Virus record (IMG/VR): IMGVR_UViG_2778261252_000010
Coordinates: 1-42,179 of that record
Length of the DNA stretch: 42,179 nucleotides
Source: a virus
Lineage: Duplodnaviria > Heunggongvirae > Uroviricota > Caudoviricetes
Reading direction: 5' to 3' (one strand)
This document shows, one piece after another, positions 1 through 34,069 of the stretch. The translations under genes and the position numbers were made by a program. The notes beneath the pieces were generated by a model that ran no database searches, was not told the origin of the DNA, and saw only the letters and a program-made list of their open reading frames with translations. Each line of letters begins with the position of its first letter. The first letter of the stretch is position 1.

Positions 1-933
1 ATGGACAACGACAAAATTGATCAACACAGCGACGAAATTGAAGTTGAGAGCGAAGAAAAAGAGCGCGGCAAAAAAATAGAAATAGATGAAGACCGACTCC
101 CCTCCCGGGCGATGGCAATTCATGAGCATATCCGCCAGGATGGTGAAAAAGAGCTGGAACGCGACGCAATGGCGCTACTGTGGTCAGCCATTGCGGCGGG
201 TCTGTCGATGGGCGCTTCGTTACTGGCAAAAGGGATATTTCATGTCGAACTGGAAGGTGTGCCGGGCAGCTTCTTACTGGAGAATCTCGGTTATACCTTT
301 GGTTTTATTATCGTCATTATGGCCCGCCAGCAATTATTTACCGAAAACACCGTGACTGCGGTACTACCCGTCATGCAAAAACCGACAATGAGCAACGTCG
401 GCTTACTTATGCGATTATGGGGCGTCGTGCTGCTGGGTAATATTCTCGGGACAGGTATTGCTGCATGGGCATTTGAATATATGCCTATCTTCAATGAAGA
501 AACTCGCGATGCATTTGTCAAAATCGGCATGGATGTGATGAAGAACACCCCCAGCGAGATGTTTGCCAACGCGATCATTTCCGGCTGGCTGATCGCCACT
601 ATGGTATGGATGTTTCCTGCAGCAGGTGCGGCAAAGATTGTGGTGATTATATTGATGACCTGGCTTATTGCCCTGGGTGACACCACCCATATCGTGGTCG
701 GTTCTGTTGAAATCCTCTATCTGGTGTTTAACGGTACGCTGCACTGGAGCGATTTCATCTGGCCCTTCGCACTACCTACTTTAGCGGGGAACATCTGCGG
801 CGGCACCTTTATCTTCGCGTTAATGAGTCATGCACAGATTCGTAACGACATGAGCAACAAGCGTAAAGCAGAAGCACGCCAAAAAGCAGAACGTGCGGAA
901 AACATTAAGAAAAATGATAAAAACCCGGCATAA
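1..933 (+). CDS. yfdC: Inner membrane protein YfdC (formate/nitrite transporter family), host gene
   Basis: 310-aa ORF with multiple hydrophobic helices and charged N- and C-termini; size and sequence recalled as E. coli YfdC; lies immediately upstream of argW as in E. coli. Confidence 0.8.
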   Translation: MDNDKIDQHSDEIEVESEEKERGKKIEIDEDRLPSRAMAIHEHIRQDGEKELERDAMALLWSAIAAGLSMGASLLAKGIFHVELEGVPGSFLLENLGYTFGFIIVIMARQQLFTENTVTAVLPVMQKPTMSNVGLLMRLWGVVLLGNILGTGIAAWAFEYMPIFNEETRDAFVKIGMDVMKNTPSEMFANAIISGWLIATMVWMFPAAGAAKIVVIILMTWLIALGDTTHIVVGSVEILYLVFNGTLHWSDFIWPFALPTLAGNICGGTFIFALMSHAQIRNDMSNKRKAEARQKAERAENIKKNDKNPA

Positions 934-1199: not shown

Positions 1200-1244
1200 G
1201 GGTAAAAAGTGGATAAAATAATTTTACCCACCGGATTTTTACCC
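1200..1244. promoter_or_regulatory. Cluster of GGGTAAAA-type repeats in both orientations directly upstream of intS (putative integrase/excisionase binding sites overlapping the intS promoter)
   Basis: GGGTAAAAA, GGATAAAAT, TTTTACCC and TTTTTACCC within 45 bp ending at the intS ATG; the same motif recurs at the torI end (40775..40795). Confidence 0.4.
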
Positions 1245-2399
1245 ATGCTCACCGTTAAGCAGATTGAAGCAGCAAAGCCGAAAGAAAAACCATACCGCCT
1301 TCTCGATGGTAATGGCCTGTACCTTTATGTCCCTGTGTCAGGGAAAAAGGTATGGCAGCTTCGCTACAAGATTGACGGTAAGGAGAAAATCCTGACCGTA
1401 GGAAAATATCCGCTAATGACTTTGCAGGAGGCAAGAGATAAAGCATGGACCGCGAGGAAAGACATCTCGGTTGGCATCGATCCGGTAAAAGCGAAAAAGG
1501 CTTCGTCTAACAACAATTCCTTTAGTGCAATTTACAAGGAATGGTACGAGCACAAGAAGCAAGTATGGTCAGTAGGCTATGCAACTGAGCTTGCCAAAAT
1601 GTTTGATGACGACATTTTACCCATCATCGGCGGTCTTGAGATTCAGGATATTGAGCCGATGCAACTGCTGGAAGTAATCCGCAGATTTGAAGATCGCGGT
1701 GCAATGGAACGAGCCAACAAAGCCCGCAGAAGATGCGGCGAGGTTTTCCGTTACGCTATTGTCACCGGAAGGGCTAAATATAACCCGGCACCTGACCTTG
1801 CAGACGCCATGAAAGGATACCGCAAGAAGAACTTCCCGTTTCTTCCAGCAGACCAGATCCCTGCATTCAACAAAGCACTGGCAACATTTTCAGGAAGTAT
1901 CGTATCGCTCATTGCGACCAAAGTTTTACGCTACACAGCCCTAAGAACGAAAGAGCTTCGCTCCATGCAATGGAAGAACGTCGATTTTGAAAACAGGATT
2001 ATCACCATCGACGCCAGTGTGATGAAGGGACGCAAAATTCATGTGGTCCCGATGTCAGACCAGGTGGTTGAACTTCTCACTACGCTAAGCTCAATCACTA
2101 AACCAGTATCAGAGTATGTTTTTGCCGGGCGCAACGATAAGAAGAAGCCAATTTGCGAGAACGCTGTACTACTTGTGATCAAACAAATCGGATATGAGGG
2201 TCTGGAAAGCGGACACGGATTCAGGCATGAATTCAGCACGATTATGAACGAGCACGAATGGCCTGCTGACGCGATTGAGGTTCAACTGGCGCATGCCAAC
2301 GGTGGATCTGTGCGCGGGATTTACAACCATGCTCAGTATCTGGATAAGCGCAGAGAAATGATGCAGTGGTGGGCTGATTTCATTGACGGAAAAGCATGA
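1245..2399 (+). CDS. intS: Tyrosine recombinase / prophage integrase (P4-like family)
   Basis: ORF next to the tRNA; N-terminus MLTVKQIEAAKP typical of P4-family integrases; C-terminal catalytic region with R..H..R..Y-type residues; start taken at the second Met (1245) of the 1209..2399 ORF. Confidence 0.8.
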   Translation: MLTVKQIEAAKPKEKPYRLLDGNGLYLYVPVSGKKVWQLRYKIDGKEKILTVGKYPLMTLQEARDKAWTARKDISVGIDPVKAKKASSNNNSFSAIYKEWYEHKKQVWSVGYATELAKMFDDDILPIIGGLEIQDIEPMQLLEVIRRFEDRGAMERANKARRRCGEVFRYAIVTGRAKYNPAPDLADAMKGYRKKNFPFLPADQIPAFNKALATFSGSIVSLIATKVLRYTALRTKELRSMQWKNVDFENRIITIDASVMKGRKIHVVPMSDQVVELLTTLSSITKPVSEYVFAGRNDKKKPICENAVLLVIKQIGYEGLESGHGFRHEFSTIMNEHEWPADAIEVQLAHANGGSVRGIYNHAQYLDKRREMMQWWADFIDGKA

Positions 2400-2490: not shown

Positions 2491-4422
2491 TTAGTTTGTT
2501 AACACAGACCCACTTATGAGTATTGCATTTGACGTACTGGTTATGTTTGGCATCCAAACCACACCGTTAGTATCGATCATCGCAGATCCATAGTTCGTAC
2601 CAGCAGTATTCGAAACCTGTGCTGCACCTCCATATAACAGCCCTCCAAATGACGGAAGTGTCGTTTTTGATAGACCATGTTCACATGAAAGATAGTTTGT
2701 TGGCGACACTTTAACCGAAAAAGATACAATCTTATTATTTCTTGTAAATTTTCCTTCAATTAACGCACCTCCTGGAGCTGTCCAACCAGGGATCCCAGGT
2801 ATAAAGTCGCGACAACTCAAATCTCCTGTAATTGTTAAATAGTTCTGAATCCAGGAATCAGAACCAGCTATTCCTTTTGTTAGTTTTTCTGAATACACAT
2901 TAGTTATTTCTGTGTGCCCATTGACGCCTACAGCATTAATATCAGATGTCACATTACCTACCTGCGAATGTGATACTGGGTTTTCTATCAAAATATTACT
3001 ATTGGCACCGGATGTGCCATCCAACTTAACCAGGGCTCCATCTATGTCTCCAGTAAGATTTCCATTCCCTGCGCCATATGGGGAGGTAAGAACTACTTGA
3101 GAACACCCTGTAGATAGATAAAAAACACCTAACTTATTTCCTTCCCCTGCGCAGTTGATAGCAGTAAACCCTTCAACAGAATGCAGTATATAGCCATACC
3201 CAGAAACTTCACTTCCTTCACTTGCACAAGTGTTCATAGAGCAATAGATACAATTTTGGAAATAGAAATAACCACCAATGCCATAACAGTTTTCAAACAG
3301 CAATGAAGTACATGCCGGTTGCACACAGAAAGAAGGGCCACCTCCATGCATCCACACTTTGCAATGAGAGATATTCCCCATGAAAGCACAGTCTGTGCCA
3401 TTAGATTCCCCAAAGCGGATACCTTGCCCCCCAGGTCCAGTATCGGAATCCACAGTAAGACCAGTTAATCTAAAATCATCTATTTTAGTCAGCCATAAAG
3501 CGACTGAAAGCGAACTACCACCGGCACGATGCGATACATGAAAATCTTCTAAAACCAGACCTCTTACTCCCTTAAAAGTAATGGCACGCGAATTTTGCGG
3601 TATAGAATCAAAATTTAAATAGCAAAGGTTTTTAGTTTTGGCATTTGCCATATGATTATAAGAGCCAGTACCTGTTATTTTCAGGCTCGCCTCATCATTA
3701 AAGTCAATAACAAGTGGTTTTGAAAATTTATATTTACCACTTAAACTAATTTCTTTACCCCGTGCAGCAGCGATGCATTTTGTAAATGCTGCATGGCAAT
3801 CAACGGTGTCAGTAGGATCTGCTCCCCACCATTCGGGTTTGTAGCTCCCTTCTATTACCCTCTTCCATCTCCTACCGGAAGCCCCAACCAAAATGATTCC
3901 ATCATCATCATCGCTCGTAGTGTCTGTATCATCTAAATAAAACCATCCTTCTCCGCCATCAAATAACCCTGACCTCCCAAGGCAATATATTTTTTTTGAT
4001 TTCTCAGAATAAGTTCTTATATCAGAAAAATACGCTCCTCCAACCAGCGTTGAGCCATAAACATCGGCTAGGCGATTTGTGAACTGATCCGGGTCGTACT
4101 TCAGAACATTCGGAAAATAGAACTGCTGCGCCCCGTACGCATCATAAACAGCCATAGAATGGCCTTGCACAGTTACGAACTTGGCAATCTGTCCGTTATA
4201 TACCGGATAACCAGCAGCGTTAATGATGATTGGCTGTGCAACAGGAACGTGAGAACCATCTTCGTTCTCCACATAAACCTGAATCTGGTTTTCAGGATTT
4301 ACTGGGTCAGTGTCAATTTTACCGATATAAATTTTGCCATTAGCTACGGCTTTGAAAGAACGAGCCATAGTGAAGAGTTGCGATGGCATACTTACTACAA
4401 CATTGGCTGTAATGTCTGTCAT
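2491..4422 (-). CDS. Tailspike protein: P22 gp9-like N-terminal head-binding domain fused to a divergent, Cys-rich receptor-binding/depolymerase domain
   Basis: First ~115 aa ([11 protein letters not shown]...[19 protein letters not shown]...VLKYDPDQ) match the P22 tailspike head-binding domain from memory; last gene of the late operon, as gene 9 is in P22. Confidence 0.8.
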
Positions 4423-4480
4423 TTAATTTGCTCCAGATACAAGGAATCGCCGCAGCATGGCTACGGTGAATTTTGGGCAT

Positions 4481-4503
4481 AAAAAAACCCAGCCGAAGCT
4501 GGG
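4481..4503 (-). terminator. Intrinsic terminator downstream of ant
   Basis: On the minus strand: CCCAGC-ttcg-GCTGGG hairpin followed by TTTTTTT. Confidence 0.6.
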
Positions 4504-4522
4504 TCGTTGCGTTGGTTATCTG

Positions 4523-5425
4523 TCAGTAGTTATGTACTGAAGGAGGTAATTCTTTATTCTTAAGTCTCATCCATGCGGAAAGATTCGTTGGTCCGTCTGG
4601 CTCATTGATATCAACATCTCGTGTGTGATTGATTAAAACGTCTCTCGCCATTCCGATAACATACGAGAATTCATGACCGTAGTCGTAGCATCTGCCGGAA
4701 TAGTTCGATTGAATTTGTTTTAATGCCGGATACAGTTCGCGGAATAATGCCTGTGAACGGTTGGCATAATCCCATAACCATACAAGGCTGTTTGCTTCTT
4801 TTGCAGAAAGCTCGTTGGTTTTCTTCTCTTGTTTGCCAATGAACTCACCTTCAAGCACTACCCTGTGGATGTACTCTACTGCTTGCGGTATCTGAGATGC
4901 ATCAAGCTCTTCAATACTTTCCACATTGAAACGCTGATGAATCATTGCATAAGCTTCTGGGTACATTAGATGCTTTTTGCTGACTAGCATATTTACAGCA
5001 TCACGAAGCGGAGTCCTGTCATCAACAGATGTTTTCTTACGTGCATTTTCTGCCTTTCCCTTCGTCCAGTAGTCATGCAGCACAGTAAAGCATTCCTCCT
5101 GGTACTGAATCAGTTTATCGCGTATGTCAGCACGAACTTTCTCAGGGTTGATGCTGAACAGCCATCCATTTAACTTCTTCAAAGGAAGGCAGAGTAGCTT
5201 ACGAAGCTTACCATCAGCGGCAACCATATTCATATGAATACAGTTGAACTTATCTAGTTGTTTCATAAGTTTTTGTTGCTGAGTACCCCAGCTCATTCCG
5301 AGGTTTTCAACGATTGGCTTCATCGCAACATATGCAACTCCGGCAGCCATGGCGGTGATAATCTGCTGACCATTGAAAGGTACGTAAGAGGTGTTCACTG
5401 CTTCTAAAATTGCTATACTATTCAT
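4523..5425 (-). CDS. ant: Antirepressor Ant (P22 immI type)
   Basis: 300-aa product beginning [22 protein letters not shown] from the Met preceded by a GGAG ribosome-binding site; position downstream of arc in a mnt-arc-ant arrangement. Confidence 0.75.
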
Positions 5426-5487
5426 GTTGGTTTTTCTCCACGGATTTACCGACAACCGAAGCCCTGACTGTTACCGCAGTTGGGGCT

Positions 5488-5670
5488 TCACTGTTTTATG
5501 TTCACATCTAACATTGTTTTTCTAGAATTTAACTCTTTCCCCATCGCTTCAACGCAAAGAGATACACAACCACTACAGATAAATATCTCTGCTTTAGCGC
5601 GAATCAACATTGCACATTCATGCTGAGGCTTTCCGCAGAAGGAGCACTTAAAGCCATCTTCTTTATTCAT
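5488..5670 (-). CDS. 60-aa protein resembling the ClpX N-terminal C4 zinc-binding domain
   Basis: KCSFCGKPQHECAMLI...ICSGCVSLC aligns with ClpX YCSFCGKSQHEVRKLI...ICDECVDLC (same Cys spacing); start ATG overlaps the arc stop (ATGA) and is preceded by a GAGGG ribosome-binding site. Confidence 0.6.
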   Translation of the reverse strand: MNKEDGFKCSFCGKPQHECAMLIRAKAEIFICSGCVSLCVEAMGKELNSRKTMLDVNIKQ

Positions 5671-5819
5671 ATCGCCACACCCTCTCTCTTCAGGCTGTCT
5701 ATCAGGCGCTTGATAACCTCTGAGTTAAACGACCTGCACTCTTCCTTTGCCCTGCTACCGATAGCATCCTTTAACGACTGCGGCATCCTTACCAAAATCT
5801 TACTTATTTCTTTCTCCAT
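5667..5819 (-). CDS. arc: Arc-like ribbon-helix-helix repressor
   Basis: 50-aa product MEKEISKILVRMPQ...CRSFNSEVIKRL with an Arc/MetJ-type RHH signature; GGAGGG ribosome-binding site; divergent from mnt. Confidence 0.7.
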   Translation of the reverse strand: MEKEISKILVRMPQSLKDAIGSRAKEECRSFNSEVIKRLIDSLKREGVAI

Positions 5820-5933
5820 GTTACCCTCCACACAAACAACTCTTTTCGAATACAAAAGATAGCAAAGTGAGTATATCTAGTCAAAATTTTTTTGCATACA
5901 CTTTGATATCAAATTGAATACCAAAGGTGTGAT
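5820..5933. promoter_or_regulatory. Divergent Pant/Pmnt promoter-operator region of immI
   Basis: 114-bp AT-rich intergenic region between divergent arc and mnt; by analogy with P22 immI. Individual operators not resolved. Confidence 0.4.
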
Positions 5934-6185
5934 ATGGCAAAGGGTGTGTCAATTTCTCCAACTACGGTAAGAATCCCTGAATCTTTACGCGAGGCTCTTG
6001 CTGTCAGAGCATCAAAAAATGGTCGCTCTGTTAACTCCGAGATCGTCATGATTTTGCAAGCCGCGATTGATGAAGATAGGTCGCCAAAGTCAGTTGAGTC
6101 ATTTGCTCAGCAAGAAGCTGACAAATTCAAAGAGGCGCTGCTTGAGACGCTGAGGAACATGCAAGAAAACAAAAAACCCACCTGA
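5934..6185 (+). CDS. mnt: Mnt-like repressor (ribbon-helix-helix)
   Basis: 83 aa, same length as P22 Mnt, with N-terminal RHH motif (RIPESLREALAVRASKNGRSVNSEI). Confidence 0.7.
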   Translation: MAKGVSISPTTVRIPESLREALAVRASKNGRSVNSEIVMILQAAIDEDRSPKSVESFAQQEADKFKEALLETLRNMQENKKPT

Positions 6186-6200: not shown

Positions 6201-7187
6201 TTAGATTTCTGGTTTTATTCTTCCAAAAACCTTTTCTATTCCTTTTTCGTATTCTTCTCTTGTCTCGCTCATCGCTGCGACACCAAGAAGCTTACCGATA
6301 TGCTGACGCAAAGCCTTGACACCAATTTCAGAAAGGAACAGGTGCAACTTATCAGATTGTTTTCCGTTCTCGTCTCGGCTGGCTCGAATCTGTTCAAGGA
6401 TTTTACCTTTACTCTTTGCTAGAGGAGTGTATATCTGCATGTTGGTTAGCTGCCCAAAACGAATTGGACGTCCTTTCTCTGGCCTGTTCAGGCCGTACAG
6501 TCGATACCACTCCTCATATAGCTCATCTGGAAATTCTTTTTCATACTGCCTCGCCTCTTCACGAACAAAGGCCTTGAAGGAATCAATAACCTCCTGTACT
6601 TCAGGTCGATATCCTGCAATAGCATAACCAAGTCCTTTAAGCCCTGCTTTCATTGATGCGGTAACAAGTCTTTGGGCAAGGCTGGCAGATTTTGATCTTG
6701 AAGGCGGTAGAGCGCCAGCTCGATCGGCATTAATCATTGCTGTGGCTATATCGCCGATAAGGGCAATATCGTAACCGTGAGCCTCATCAGCGAGTGGATT
6801 TGGGGCTGAGTTTGGGACCGGACTTCTCCATTGAAAAATAAGAGGTTTTTTGAATTTTTCTAGCAGAAATGGATCAACAAAATCAGCCATATAATTCGTA
6901 TTTAGAAAACGGTCTACATCCCTACCATGCTCACCGATTCCTAGTAATTTAGCCAGACCAGTTTTACTAACTACAACCGTTTTATCATTATCATCAAGTA
7001 CGTAACATTCTGCATCAATGCCGAAATCATCAATGAAGTTACCCTTTCTGATCGCTCTTAGTGGCTTACCTTCCCATCGTTTTGCCGCTGCTTTCTTTGC
7101 TATTTCAGAACGCTGCTCTTTAGTCAGCGACTTTGCGCGAGCGATCCCGCCCTTAGCTTTCCCTTCGCCACTTTTCTTTTCAGTCAT
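6201..7187 (-). CDS. Hypothetical phage protein, paralog of the cI-downstream gene 33149..34069 (possibly P63C-type regulator domain; unverified)
   Basis: 329 aa from an ATG with AGGTG ribosome-binding site (the ORF track extends to 7262); shares blocks with the 33149..34069 product (AECYVLDD vs IDCYVLD; FPDELYEEWYRLYG vs FPDELWEEFGRLTG). Confidence 0.65.
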   Translation of the reverse strand: MTEKKSGEGKAKGGIARAKSLTKEQRSEIAKKAAAKRWEGKPLRAIRKGNFIDDFGIDAECYVLDDNDKTVVVSKTGLAKLLGIGEHGRDVDRFLNTNYMADFVDPFLLEKFKKPLIFQWRSPVPNSAPNPLADEAHGYDIALIGDIATAMINADRAGALPPSRSKSASLAQRLVTASMKAGLKGLGYAIAGYRPEVQEVIDSFKAFVREEARQYEKEFPDELYEEWYRLYGLNRPEKGRPIRFGQLTNMQIYTPLAKSKGKILEQIRASRDENGKQSDKLHLFLSEIGVKALRQHIGKLLGVAAMSETREEYEKGIEKVFGRIKPEI

Positions 7188-7343
7188 AATGCAAGCACCT
7201 TTATTGTGATGTATGCTTGCATTATATGCACTGTACACACATACAAGCAAGCATAAAACCAAAACAAAATGCTTGCATTACAACCGCGCTACTCCAACTA
7301 CACATTATCATCTGGTATCCTGCGCAAAACTAAGGAGGTTGGT

Positions 7344-7838
7344 GTGTCTGATTCTATGAGTTACGCTGTGCTAGTTGCCGCAACTCTATTTCTGGGGATA
7401 GGGTTGCAGATTGCGTGGTTCTTTTTTTCTAGTTTTATTAAACGTAAAAGAATTGAATCAAGGATATCTGAGATTTCTATTGCTATAGGGAAAAATGCTG
7501 AAAATCCAGAGAATGAGGCCTGCGCACTGAATTACCTTAAAGAAAAGTTTTCCCCTGAAAAATTTGAAAACAGAATTACTGATGCTCTTGGATTGGTAAT
7601 ATCAGTAATTCATATGCCACTAAGTTTGCTGATAACAGTGTGGTACTTCGCCATGATCGCCGGAAGAATATTTGGTTTCATGAATATAGAGCCTGTAGTT
7701 CTTTGGGTTCCAATGATACTGCAATTGTTGTTAAGCGTTGCTATCTTTATTTTTTCTGTTTTTATAAAAATTGTCTTCGGAAGATACCCCGGAGAAGCGA
7801 AGGGATTTAATAAAGAATTCATAAAAACTATAAAATAA
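7344..7838 (+). CDS. Small polytopic inner-membrane protein in the sieA position (putative superinfection-exclusion or moron product)
   Basis: AT-rich ORF with several hydrophobic helices; strong AAGGAGG ribosome-binding site before GTG 7344 (in-frame ATG at 7356 is an alternative start); opposite strand to the late operon. Confidence 0.55.
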
Positions 7839-30664: not shown

Positions 30665-31525
30665 TCACCTGTCGAAAAACACGTAGCCAGTTTTCGATAC
30701 GGTGATTGCGGATGATGGTTTGGATTGTGGTTGAATGGTTTCTGGCTTCTCGTCGTTCCAGCGCTGACCGTTCAGGTAGCTCGATGGTAACAACCTGTCG
30801 AATCCGAACTGCTTACCATTCCTGCATGCGATGTCTTCTGCCAGCATCGTGGCAAACTCGCTTGCCGTACCCCTGGTAGTTTTACGCCATTCCCTGAACT
30901 GTGTTCTGAATGCTGAAGCTGCGTTTTTCTTCCCGGCTTTCCGCATGCCCGCACACCAGAATATTTCCTCGAATGCCTTGTCGGTTTCTTCGTGATGGTC
31001 AGGTGATTTTTCACACTCCGTCCGAACACTTTCGGACATAGTGTTTTTATTATTTCTTTTTTCTTTTGTAATAGTTTCTTTTGTGTGTCCCTGTTTTGGT
31101 GACAGCGCTGTCACCGTTTTGGTGACACTTTTTGTCACCAATGCAGTGACATTATCACCAGAGTAGTGACACCCTTCTATTTGCCATTCCTCGATGTTCT
31201 TGTTAGGCCCGATTTGCTGGCCTTCGCGAAGGATAACCTTCATCGCGATAAGCTCATTCTTGGCCTTGTTTACCTTCTGTCTTGGCAGCCTGGTAATTTG
31301 AGCTAACTGACTATCAGAAATGCGATCCATCTTTTTACCGTAGCCGTATGTTTTACGGCATATGGCGTGGGCAACCTTGCTCTGATTTTTCGTTAAATCT
31401 GCGCCGATAAGCTCTTCATACAGGGCATTTGCAAGACGGGTATAACCATCTTCAACTTCTGCCACACGACGCTCCACAGGCCGTTGTGAAGGCCTTAAAT
31501 GTGTTACGGTTGCAAGATTACTCAT
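30665..31525 (-). CDS. Replication initiation protein (lambda O-like N-terminal domain)
   Basis: 286 aa; N-terminal HTH region ([13 protein letters not shown]...[22 protein letters not shown]); iterons embedded in the coding sequence. Confidence 0.7.
31093..31172. repeat. Origin iterons (GTGACA-containing repeats) inside the initiator gene
   Basis: GTTTTGGTGACA twice (31093 and 31116) plus at least four further GTGACA/TGTCACC copies within ~80 bp. Confidence 0.6.
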
Positions 31526-33148: not shown

Positions 33149-34069
33149 ATGAGACGTTTGGGTGATTCAACGCAGCGAAAAAGGGTAATTCAATTAATGG
33201 AACATGATGATTTACAGCAATTACCATCCCCATTCGCAAAATGGAAGGGGAAGATCGACTTAGGTGGTGAAAGTATTGATTGCTATGTGCTTGACACTGG
33301 ACATCGTGTTATAGCTTTGCGAGCAACTGTAAAAGCAATTGCCAATGCGGAGTCAGGAGACCTGGCTAAATTTATTGGCGTTAGCTCACTTAATGGCTTT
33401 ATAGACAAAGACTTAGTCCTGGCCGAACTCATAGAGTTTTCCATACCAGGAACCCAATTTAAGAGCCAAGGACTTAAGACTGAGCAATTTGAATTGATTT
33501 GTCGCGGCTATGTACAGGCGCTATACAAAGGCGCGCCATTGACAGATAGACAGCGAGAAATAGCAATTAAATGTGCTGTATTAACAGCTGGTTTAACTAG
33601 GACTGGGTTAGATGCTCTAATTGATGAGGCTACTGGGTATCAGTATGAGCGTGCAGAGGATGCTCTCCAAGTAAAACTCAGGGCGTTCATCGCTGAGGAA
33701 CTAAGAGCATGGGAAAAAACATTTCCTGATGAGTTATGGGAAGAATTTGGTAGATTGACAGGATGGAGCACCCCATTGCAATCAAGGCCCAAATGGTGGG
33801 GGAAATTGGTTATAGAGTTAATTTATGACACTCTTGACGAAGATGTGGCTAAATATCTTAAAGAAAACAAGCCTGCGGCAGGAGTTCACTGGCATAGACA
33901 GTTAACCGAGAACCTAGGTGTAAGGCAGCTTGTATCAAGGTGCTGGGAGGTTATTGGGGTCGCAAAAACATGCGACACCATGCATGAGCTAAGAAGTCGA
34001 GTTGCTCAACACTATGGAAAGAAACCTGTTCAAATGACAATGTATTTACCGGAAAAAGAAATTAAATAA
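33149..34069 (+). CDS. Hypothetical protein in the rexAB position (co-oriented with cI), paralog of 6201..7187; candidate lysogen-expressed exclusion/defense gene
   Basis: 306-aa ORF 35 bp after cI and before the terminator and OL/pL; shares sequence blocks with 6201..7187. Confidence 0.65.
   Translation: MRRLGDSTQRKRVIQLMEHDDLQQLPSPFAKWKGKIDLGGESIDCYVLDTGHRVIALRATVKAIANAESGDLAKFIGVSSLNGFIDKDLVLAELIEFSIPGTQFKSQGLKTEQFELICRGYVQALYKGAPLTDRQREIAIKCAVLTAGLTRTGLDALIDEATGYQYERAEDALQVKLRAFIAEELRAWEKTFPDELWEEFGRLTGWSTPLQSRPKWWGKLVIELIYDTLDEDVAKYLKENKPAAGVHWHRQLTENLGVRQLVSRCWEVIGVAKTCDTMHELRSRVAQHYGKKPVQMTMYLPEKEIK

Follow-up and report, generated by a model that had tools for sequence, protein, structure and literature searches.

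A stand-alone ClpX-type zinc finger encoded in a cassette slot between arc and ant of a P22-like Escherichia coli prophage

The zinc-binding domain (ZBD) at the N-terminus of ClpX is a dimer-forming docking module; it dimerises alone, and MuA, FtsZ and adaptors depend on it, whereas the ssrA tag does not (PMC5415555). The ZBD is also required for the degradation of lambda O, and one hydrophobic surface of the domain, which includes F16 and I46, is common to SspB, RssB, trigger factor and lambda O; I46 is one of two hydrophobic side-pocket residues the mutation of which abolished the effect of trigger factor in enhancing lambda O degradation by ClpXP (PMC7804408). The isolated ZBD of Escherichia coli dimerises, cross-links to RssB and, when supplied in trans at 5-20 uM, inhibits the RssB-mediated breakdown of sigma-S by ClpXP in vitro (PMC7226468). 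The present analysis deals with a 60-residue open reading frame (ORF) that encodes a free-standing domain of this type, found in IMG/VR virus record IMGVR_UViG_2778261252_000010; the whole stretch of 42,179 nucleotides analysed here (the window) contains a complete P22-like (Lederbergvirus) E. coli prophage, and the ORF is located in the second immunity region of this prophage, immI, between the repressor gene arc and the antirepressor gene ant.

Several small proteins are known to interfere with ATP-dependent proteolysis in the host. Lambda RexB blocks proteolysis by ClpP, while T7 gp4.5 and T4 PinA target Lon, an anti-protease logic that stabilises antitoxins of the host or proteins of the phage, for instance lambda O (PMC10286901). 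The anti-adaptors IraD, IraM and IraP of E. coli are small proteins that sit on an adaptor surface and thereby block the delivery of sigma-S to ClpXP, and it has been proposed that IraD and the ClpX ZBD share a site on RssB (PMC7226468). If the 60-residue protein acted as a decoy of the ClpX N-domain, it would resemble RexB, gp4.5 and PinA in being a small phage protein that dampens a host AAA+ protease; these three are nevertheless functional analogues only, as they have no kinship with it in sequence or fold, act on ClpP or Lon and are not docking-domain mimics. The anti-adaptors likewise differ: they have no sequence relationship with it, are encoded on the chromosome and are under stress regulation, and competition by a ZBD mimic would come from the ClpX side of the interface. 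As for the immunity region itself, the antisense RNA sar controls the translation of ant in P22. In P22 and epsilon34 the arc stop codon abuts the sar terminator, leaving no gene between arc and ant, and the characterised immI of P22 holds no counterpart of the 60-residue ORF. This ORF lies in the same region as the cargo genes of the ant moron, a segment between gene 16 and the tailspike gene that carries differing gene sets among P22-like phages (PMC2629481; PMC8022706) and undergoes rapid gene flux (Villafane et al. 2008, PMC2629481). Neither of these two papers was found to describe the exact sub-slot, bounded by the arc stop on one side and the sar terminator on the other, together with the four alternative coupled cassettes presented below.

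By score, by its ligands and by its predicted fold, the 60-residue protein (translated from the minus strand of positions 5488-5670: MNKEDGFKCSFCGKPQHECAMLIRAKAEIFICSGCVSLCVEAMGKELNSRKTMLDVNIKQ) is a member of the zf-C4_ClpX family without being ClpX proper; its gene is almost certainly an accessory (moron) cassette, lodged between the arc stop and the sar terminator, that encodes a stand-alone and divergent homologue of the ClpX ZBD. Against the Pfam profile PF06689 (zf-C4_ClpX), whose gathering score is 27, the protein scores 42.2 bits (E 7.6e-11), and the match covers positions 2-36 of the 39 in the profile. Comparison with the PDB by phmmer retrieves E. coli ClpX ZBD structures (1ovx_A, E 1.7e-7; 2ds5_A, E 2e-7); all seven matches with E < 0.001 are ClpX, either the ZBD entries 1OVX and 2DS5-8 or full-length chains, and the eighth match is a ribosomal protein with an E value of 0.72. 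Within the aligned region 19 of 39 residues (49%) are identical to the E. coli ZBD. The predicted zinc ligands C9, C12, C32 and C35, arranged in two CxxC knuckles, correspond to C14, C17, C36 and C39 of ClpX, and these four columns are invariant in alignments of 57 and 59 sequences and occupied by cysteine in 99-100% of 325 domain segments. The initial annotation, made from the letters alone, had proposed a zinc ribbon of the form CSFCGK(x18)ICSGC aligning residue for residue with the ClpX N-domain. Both halves of this motif are present, and the homology to the N-terminal C4 zinc domain of ClpX is borne out by sequence and predicted fold; the spacer had been miscounted, being 16 residues long as against 15 in E. 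coli ClpX, and the alignment with the latter contains a one-residue indel in the hairpin loop. A spacing of 16 residues is common elsewhere in the family.

When provided with an alignment of ZBD homologues (57 domain segments), AlphaFold2 predicts for the single chain a treble-clef fold made of two hairpins and a C-terminal helix, with a mean pLDDT of 78.7 and values of 90-95 for residues 11-40; this model supersedes a poor one obtained from the single sequence (pLDDT 58.7). In line with the proposed likeness to the ClpX N-domain, the model can be laid over 2ds5_A at 0.7 A across 39 columns (target TM 0.84) and over the ZBD-XB complex 2ds8_B at 0.9 A, the range for ClpX ZBD crystal structures being 0.7-0.9 A with target TM values of 0.79-0.86. 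The seven best fold matches in the PDB are all ClpX; RING, LIM and GATA fingers are found far behind. By comparison with the E. coli ClpX ZBD (1OVX, 2DS5-2DS8), the 60-residue protein thus shares the Pfam family, the C4 ligands, the CSFCGK knuckle and equivalents of F16 and Y34; it differs in being free-standing, devoid of both linker and AAA+ module, in having a hairpin loop one residue longer, in the replacements of V24 by C, of AGP by RAK(A) and of I46 by A, and in the extra cysteine at position 19. Neither an AAA+ module nor any further Pfam match is found in the chain, which ends 25 residues past the last zinc ligand. Lacking an AAA+ module, the protein cannot itself unfold or degrade anything, and without an ATPase it can act only by binding something. 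A recent copy of the 5' end of the host clpX gene was considered as its source and rejected, given the identity of only 49% and a GC content of 39%.

Within the ant moron, the 60-residue ORF represents one of the alleles at a precise cargo slot whose occupants are translationally coupled. In E. coli P22-like prophages with the same arc allele, the gap between arc and ant is filled by one of at least four small ORFs. Counted over 5,426 complete E. coli genomes, these are a 67-residue Cys-rich ORF (phrog_7150; 372 genomes), a 57-residue ORF (phrog_17642; 93 genomes), a 73-residue ORF (phrog_11805; 51 genomes) and the 60-residue ZBD cassette, which has no specific PHROG (10 genomes). In all four, an ATGA or GTGA at the start spans the arc stop and is preceded by the same GAGGG. 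AAA-CAG-TGA, which is complementary to the U-tail of the sar terminator, forms the end of three of them, and these three share the junction AAACAGTGAAGCCCC; the 67-residue cassette ends in GAA-AGT-TGA and joins the hairpin as P22 and epsilon34 do. This last cassette is exemplified by locus L032 (NZ_CP159170.1, 4198204-4199925), where it lies between arc and ant and is coupled by ATGA, and it is also found in phage CUS-3 (L033, about 2501-2701), in a stretch annotated only as 'bsq2 boundary sequence'. Its product is of the sequence type MSKECCFCG...LCSDCV..., with a CxxCG...CxxCV spacing. In the eight RefSeq records shown, no feature is annotated for this ORF, and a Pfam ClpX match is likewise absent; its alignment to the ZBD is marginal (hhalign probability 55%, with a shared cross-match to phrog_5259), and its best PDB sequence match is the RING domain of RNF4. 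PADLOC returned nothing for the 60-residue ORF, for the 57- and 73-residue cassettes or for the neighbouring genes.

In terms of expression, the sequence supports the layout proposed in the initial annotation. The plus-strand TCAT at positions 5667-5670 is ATGA on the coding strand, the TGA of arc overlapping the ATG of the ORF within these 4 nt, and a putative ribosome-binding site is provided by a Shine-Dalgarno-like GAGGG ending 9 nt before this ATG. Expression together with the immI operon is the natural reading of a sequence that has a Pant-like promoter upstream and an intact sar RNA downstream. The promoter-like element occupies the position of Pant/Oarc in the annotations of P22 and epsilon34 and would drive arc, the 60-residue ORF and ant, all three of which are located on the minus strand; no minus-strand terminator intervenes in the terminator scan, whose only terminator-like sites are the plus-strand sar terminator and one beyond mnt. 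At its 3' end, sar runs antisense to the final codon and the stop codon of the ORF, and the tail of its terminator, ACTGTTTT, represents on the opposite strand the last codons of the ORF (...K-Q-stop), forming the right boundary of the cassette slot. On the strength of this layout, Pant very probably drives transcription of the ORF along with that of arc and ant, and translation of the ORF is very probably coupled to arc. Transcription from Pant would come as a brief pulse after infection, lasting until Arc closes the promoter, and would be silent in the lysogen under Mnt. Late-operon read-through probably transcribes the ORF as well, because the flanking late genes share its strand; late transcription through the ant moron has been reported (Villafane 2008, PMC2629481). 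Inside the zinc-finger ORF, a promoter-like site on the plus strand (5501-5528; TTCACA-16 nt-TAGAAT, 10/12 matches) points antisense towards arc; it was not retained as a real promoter, two such sites being found against 1.6 expected from shuffling, and probably arises by chance.

The chromosomes of E. coli 14EC047 and 14EC017 match the 501 bp around the ORF with 100% identity, and five prophage-like contigs of IMG/VR carry the cassette. Within a large protein collection, 469 contigs from E. coli, Shigella and Salmonella encode exactly this 60-residue sequence, 12 minor variants being present as well, and an exhaustive search of 1.84 billion cluster representatives revealed no second cluster at >=50% identity; a word-indexed protein search returned only the protein's own cluster. 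Scans of species-representative genomes and of JGI metagenomes gave only matches of 41-65% identity, assumed to be clpX-type domains, and a tblastn match in MT835703 was set aside as a full-length clpP-clpX pair. The nearest single-domain relative, P0136 (21 of 37 residues identical), is encoded on a phage-like metagenome contig and adjoins a Mom-like gene. When the window is compared with the prophage of L008, the ZBD gene shows no mismatch in 183 nucleotides and arc only 2 in 152, as opposed to 18 of 252 (7%) in mnt, 10 of 59 (17%) in the sar spacer and 210 of 906 (23%) in ant; the window ant is 96.9% identical in DNA to that of epsilon34. The ZBD gene also adjoins three different ant alleles. 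A near-identical arc and ZBD pair amid diverged mnt, sar and ant, found with three ant alleles, implies that the block moves by recombination between immI regions, and the pattern indicates a recent recombinational transfer. It also argues for a function independent of any particular Ant, and the idea that the protein is a partner specific to Ant was rejected, given the three different ant alleles found beside the gene. The positions of these elements in the window are collected below, together with the genes at its ends and the replication initiator of the prophage.

Table 1. Features of the prophage window, with the immI region in detail.
Feature	Position	Strand	Evidence or location
yfdC, formate/nitrite transporter family	1-933		left window end
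phage integrase gene	1209-2399		left window end
ant, antirepressor, 301 aa, downstream gene of operon	4523..5428	-	Pfam P22_AR_N 152 bits, P22_AR_C 104 bits
sar antisense RNA, full length	5426..5492	+	Rfam RF00262, 88.4 bits vs gathering score 43, E 5.5e-19
sar terminator hairpin and T-tail	5458..5499	+	terminator scan
60-residue ORF, free-standing ClpX-N-domain-type zinc finger (predicted treble clef, C4)	5488..5670	-	Pfam, PDB, AlphaFold2, RefSeq
arc, 51 aa, Arc-family ribbon-helix-helix repressor	5667..5822	-	Pfam Arc 45.7 bits; RefSeq annotation of identical locus
Shine-Dalgarno-like GAGGG, within last arc codons (...KREG...)	5680..5684	-	sequence
Pant-like sigma-70 promoter, TTGACT-17 nt-TATCTT with TG extension	5856..5884	-	consensus scan, pattern match only
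mnt, 83 aa, divergently transcribed Pant repressor	5934..6185	+	Pfam Arc/RHH; position as in P22, epsilon34
lambda-O-type replication initiator	30665..31525	-	Pfam Phage_rep_O 128.8 bits
LacY-type gene			right window end

This raises the question as to what the protein binds. The gene is an accessory gene whose domain is already annotated, and a decoy role is a plausible hypothesis by analogy with the ZBD supplied in trans. The 60-residue protein would mimic the ClpX N-domain through protein-protein competition, either by binding the partners of this domain, whether adaptors such as SspB and RssB or substrates such as the lambda-O-type initiator of the phage itself, or by forming heterodimers with the N-domains of ClpX; by either route, N-domain-dependent proteolysis by ClpXP would be briefly damped and ssrA-type degradation would be spared. 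N-domain mimicry is put forward tentatively, as a possible mechanism that falls well short of a probable one. In its favour, the protein retains F16 as F11, Y34 as F30, the four cysteines and the CSFCGK knuckle. The initiator of the prophage, 49% identical to lambda O over residues 1-157 (by comparison with a hand-entered lambda O sequence), may be regarded as a candidate beneficiary of any ZBD decoy.

A number of observations weigh against a decoy. Taking the pocket residues F16 and I46 from the published work (PMC7804408) and the family conservation from the 325 domain segments, the position of I46, a column with Ile in 59% and Ala in 6% of the family domains, is taken by A42, or by V in one allele, and V24 is replaced by C19 (V in 83% of the family), A29 by R24 (A in 57%), G30 by A25 (G in 81%) and P31 by K26 (P in 72%); the case for a working free ZBD appears weakened at these signature positions. 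The identity to the host ZBD is only 49%, against 79% for the copy carried by phage P88. The gene is also rare, being the least frequent of the four slot occupants and present in just 10 of the 5,426 genomes, and of these ten copies seven are intact, two have lost a zinc ligand (C9Y) and one is interrupted (G13stop). No copy above 60% identity was found by tblastn among 50,697 phage records, and the JGI metagenome contigs scanned yielded no relative exceeding 65% identity. The nucleotide differences that could be inspected amount to five distinct non-synonymous changes (six with A42V, seen at the protein level) and no synonymous one; no sign of purifying selection emerges from so few differences, which are too few to measure it and give very low power. 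The slot moreover houses three other, unrelated or barely related cassettes, and with occupants so varied the position alone says nothing about ClpX.

The divergence from the ClpX signature at V24, A29-G30-P31 and I46 would equally suit a small interaction module built on a zinc finger and aimed at something outside the ClpX pathway, be it a host or phage protein or a nucleic acid, the likeness to ClpX then reflecting ancestry only; a defence factor, a component of a resident prophage or a partner in the immI circuit can be imagined. P0136, which is 151 residues long with an extra C-terminal region, shares the odd PQxEC...no-AGP pattern, the commonest slot occupant (372 of 5,426 genomes) is a different Cys-rich protein with a marginal link to the ZBD, and treble-clef fingers, among which RING, LIM and GATA are the next fold matches, have many unrelated binding roles. 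Such a module is only slightly less likely than N-domain mimicry. Against it, the sequence match is specific to ClpX ZBDs (seven of eight PDB matches) and the overlay is as close as 0.7 A, no match points to another target, PADLOC included, and a role specific to Ant is unlikely for a gene that occurs with three ant alleles. An unlikely alternative, for which the rarity just described (10 genomes as compared with 51, 93 and 372) would be a natural outcome, is that of a passenger with little or no present function, a fragment of ZBD ancestry caught in a recombination-prone slot and now drifting and decaying. Inactivating alleles (G13stop or C9Y) are found in three of the ten complete genomes and in one of the five IMG/VR contigs, every substitution observed is non-synonymous, P22 and epsilon34 function with no gene in the slot, the ant moron is known for its rapid gene flux (PMC2629481), and the cassette has a GC content of 39% against 46% in the window. 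Yet the intact allele is by far the commonest (469 contigs), all four ligands survive in 12 of the 13 distinct variants, and the most divergent variant, P0180, has only conservative changes in its core (I29V, L38I); the precise coupled start, the Shine-Dalgarno element and the complete domain are all kept, the arc and ZBD block has spread between diverged immI backgrounds, and in the prophage with the nonsense allele ant is also broken, by IS2, which argues for general decay and not for a specific loss.

A third reading keeps ClpX as the partner and reverses the outcome: by forming a heterodimer with the ClpX N-domain or by docking through its C-terminal tail, the protein would serve as a hijacking adaptor that presents ClpXP with something new to destroy, for example a repressor or a defence protein. 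ZBDs form dimers constitutively (PMC7226468; PMC5415555), the protein extends 14 residues past the domain in a C-terminal segment predicted, with low confidence, to be helical, and it would be co-expressed with an antirepressor, which inactivates repressors. This reading is pure conjecture and very unlikely, as no second binding domain is detectable in the 60 residues, the final two of which are set by the sequence of the sar terminator, and no precedent was found for an adaptor consisting of a ZBD only.

Were the decoy mechanism true, it would represent the first natural inhibitor aimed at the docking domain of ClpX instead of the protease chamber or the pore. A temperate phage could in this way guard its replication initiator, or block protease-triggered toxin-antitoxin or sigma-S responses, during the first few minutes after entry, and the protein would be a ready selective tool for shutting off adaptor-dependent ClpXP degradation in vivo. 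A much broader reading, which must be considered speculative and rather improbable, would have phages encode trans-acting copies of the ClpX docking domain, acting as decoys or poison subunits, that turn off only the N-domain-dependent branch of ClpXP for a short time after infection; the branch affected would comprise adaptor-delivered sigma-S and ssrA, lambda-O-type initiators, MuA and FtsZ, while the immI cassette, the P88 protein and several function-unknown PHROGs would form a single unrecognised class of phage anti-proteases and the arc-ant slot would be a dedicated site for such factors, with another small zinc finger as its commonest occupant. Even if the decoy mechanism is wrong, a precise and previously unannotated slot for immI cassettes is defined, the commonest occupant of which, the 67-residue zinc-finger-like ORF, is present in about 7% of complete E. 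coli genomes.

With regard to prior description, the initial annotation had presented the 60-residue ORF as of a kind not known to be described for a phage protein in immI. This stands as far as function is concerned, a full-text search having found no functional study, and does not stand as regards the name, the protein being listed in RefSeq as WP_047668240.1, 'ClpX C4-type zinc finger protein'. Small phage proteins that consist (nearly) of a ClpX-type finger alone, 57-110 residues long, recur: they include PHROGs 5259, 6797, 12435, 20296 and 3680, BFVD entries of 57-65 residues and a 110-residue protein of P88. The full-text search found no paper on any of them, and they have no described function apart from the label 'protease' given to phrog_12435; a 65-residue protein of Pseudomonas phage PP9W2 (BFVD A0A9E7CCK4) is labelled 'Clp protease'. 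The likeness of the 60-residue protein to this group is at the level of the domain only (E about 1e-7 to the PHROG profiles), and the genomic contexts differ. In P88, a P2-like E. coli phage, the 110-residue protein (L026, 2324-2656; KP063541.1, 10195-10527) carries a C-terminal ZBD with 79% identity to that of host ClpX, is mis-annotated as 'carboxylate-amine ligase' and has its gene where the replication and partition genes end; it is a stronger candidate for a ClpX N-domain mimic than the 60-residue protein. Hundreds of bacterial proteins (P0002-P0150 among the representatives) are made of two to six tandem ClpX-type ZBD repeats with no ATPase; to our knowledge, these have no described function. 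Such repeat proteins make up most of the best matches in the search of cluster representatives and are uninformative as to the 60-residue gene.

Beyond the slot, the surrounding ant moron carries further cargo. In related prophages, and outside the window, a gene whose start overlaps the mnt stop encodes a 178-residue ClpP-family protein (Pfam CLP_protease, 46.7 bits; L002 3274-3810, L007 2774-3310, L008 2774-3310, L032 1404-1722) in which Ser and His align with the catalytic residues of ClpP; because of this overlap with mnt, the protein is presumably made in lysogens. The ClpP-like gene and the ZBD cassette occur together in one genome (APEC20/16, L008), the window having a P63C-domain gene at that place. 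An obligatory partnership of the 60-residue ORF with the ClpP-like gene was rejected, as the latter is absent from the window and also accompanies the 57- and 67-residue cassettes. Two P63C-domain proteins are encoded in the prophage, one in the ant moron next to mnt (6201-7187, minus strand; phrog_2384) and the other next to the S24/HTH repressor gene (33149-34069, plus strand). The ant moron of the window also encodes a SieA-like superinfection-exclusion protein (7269-7838, plus strand; phrog_7745, E 1e-108), for which there is no Pfam match. In L006 and L025 (about 3632-4611), which carry the ZBD cassette, a Panacea-domain protein and a small partner ORF stand beside mnt in place of the P63C gene, a further instance of cargo turnover in the ant moron.

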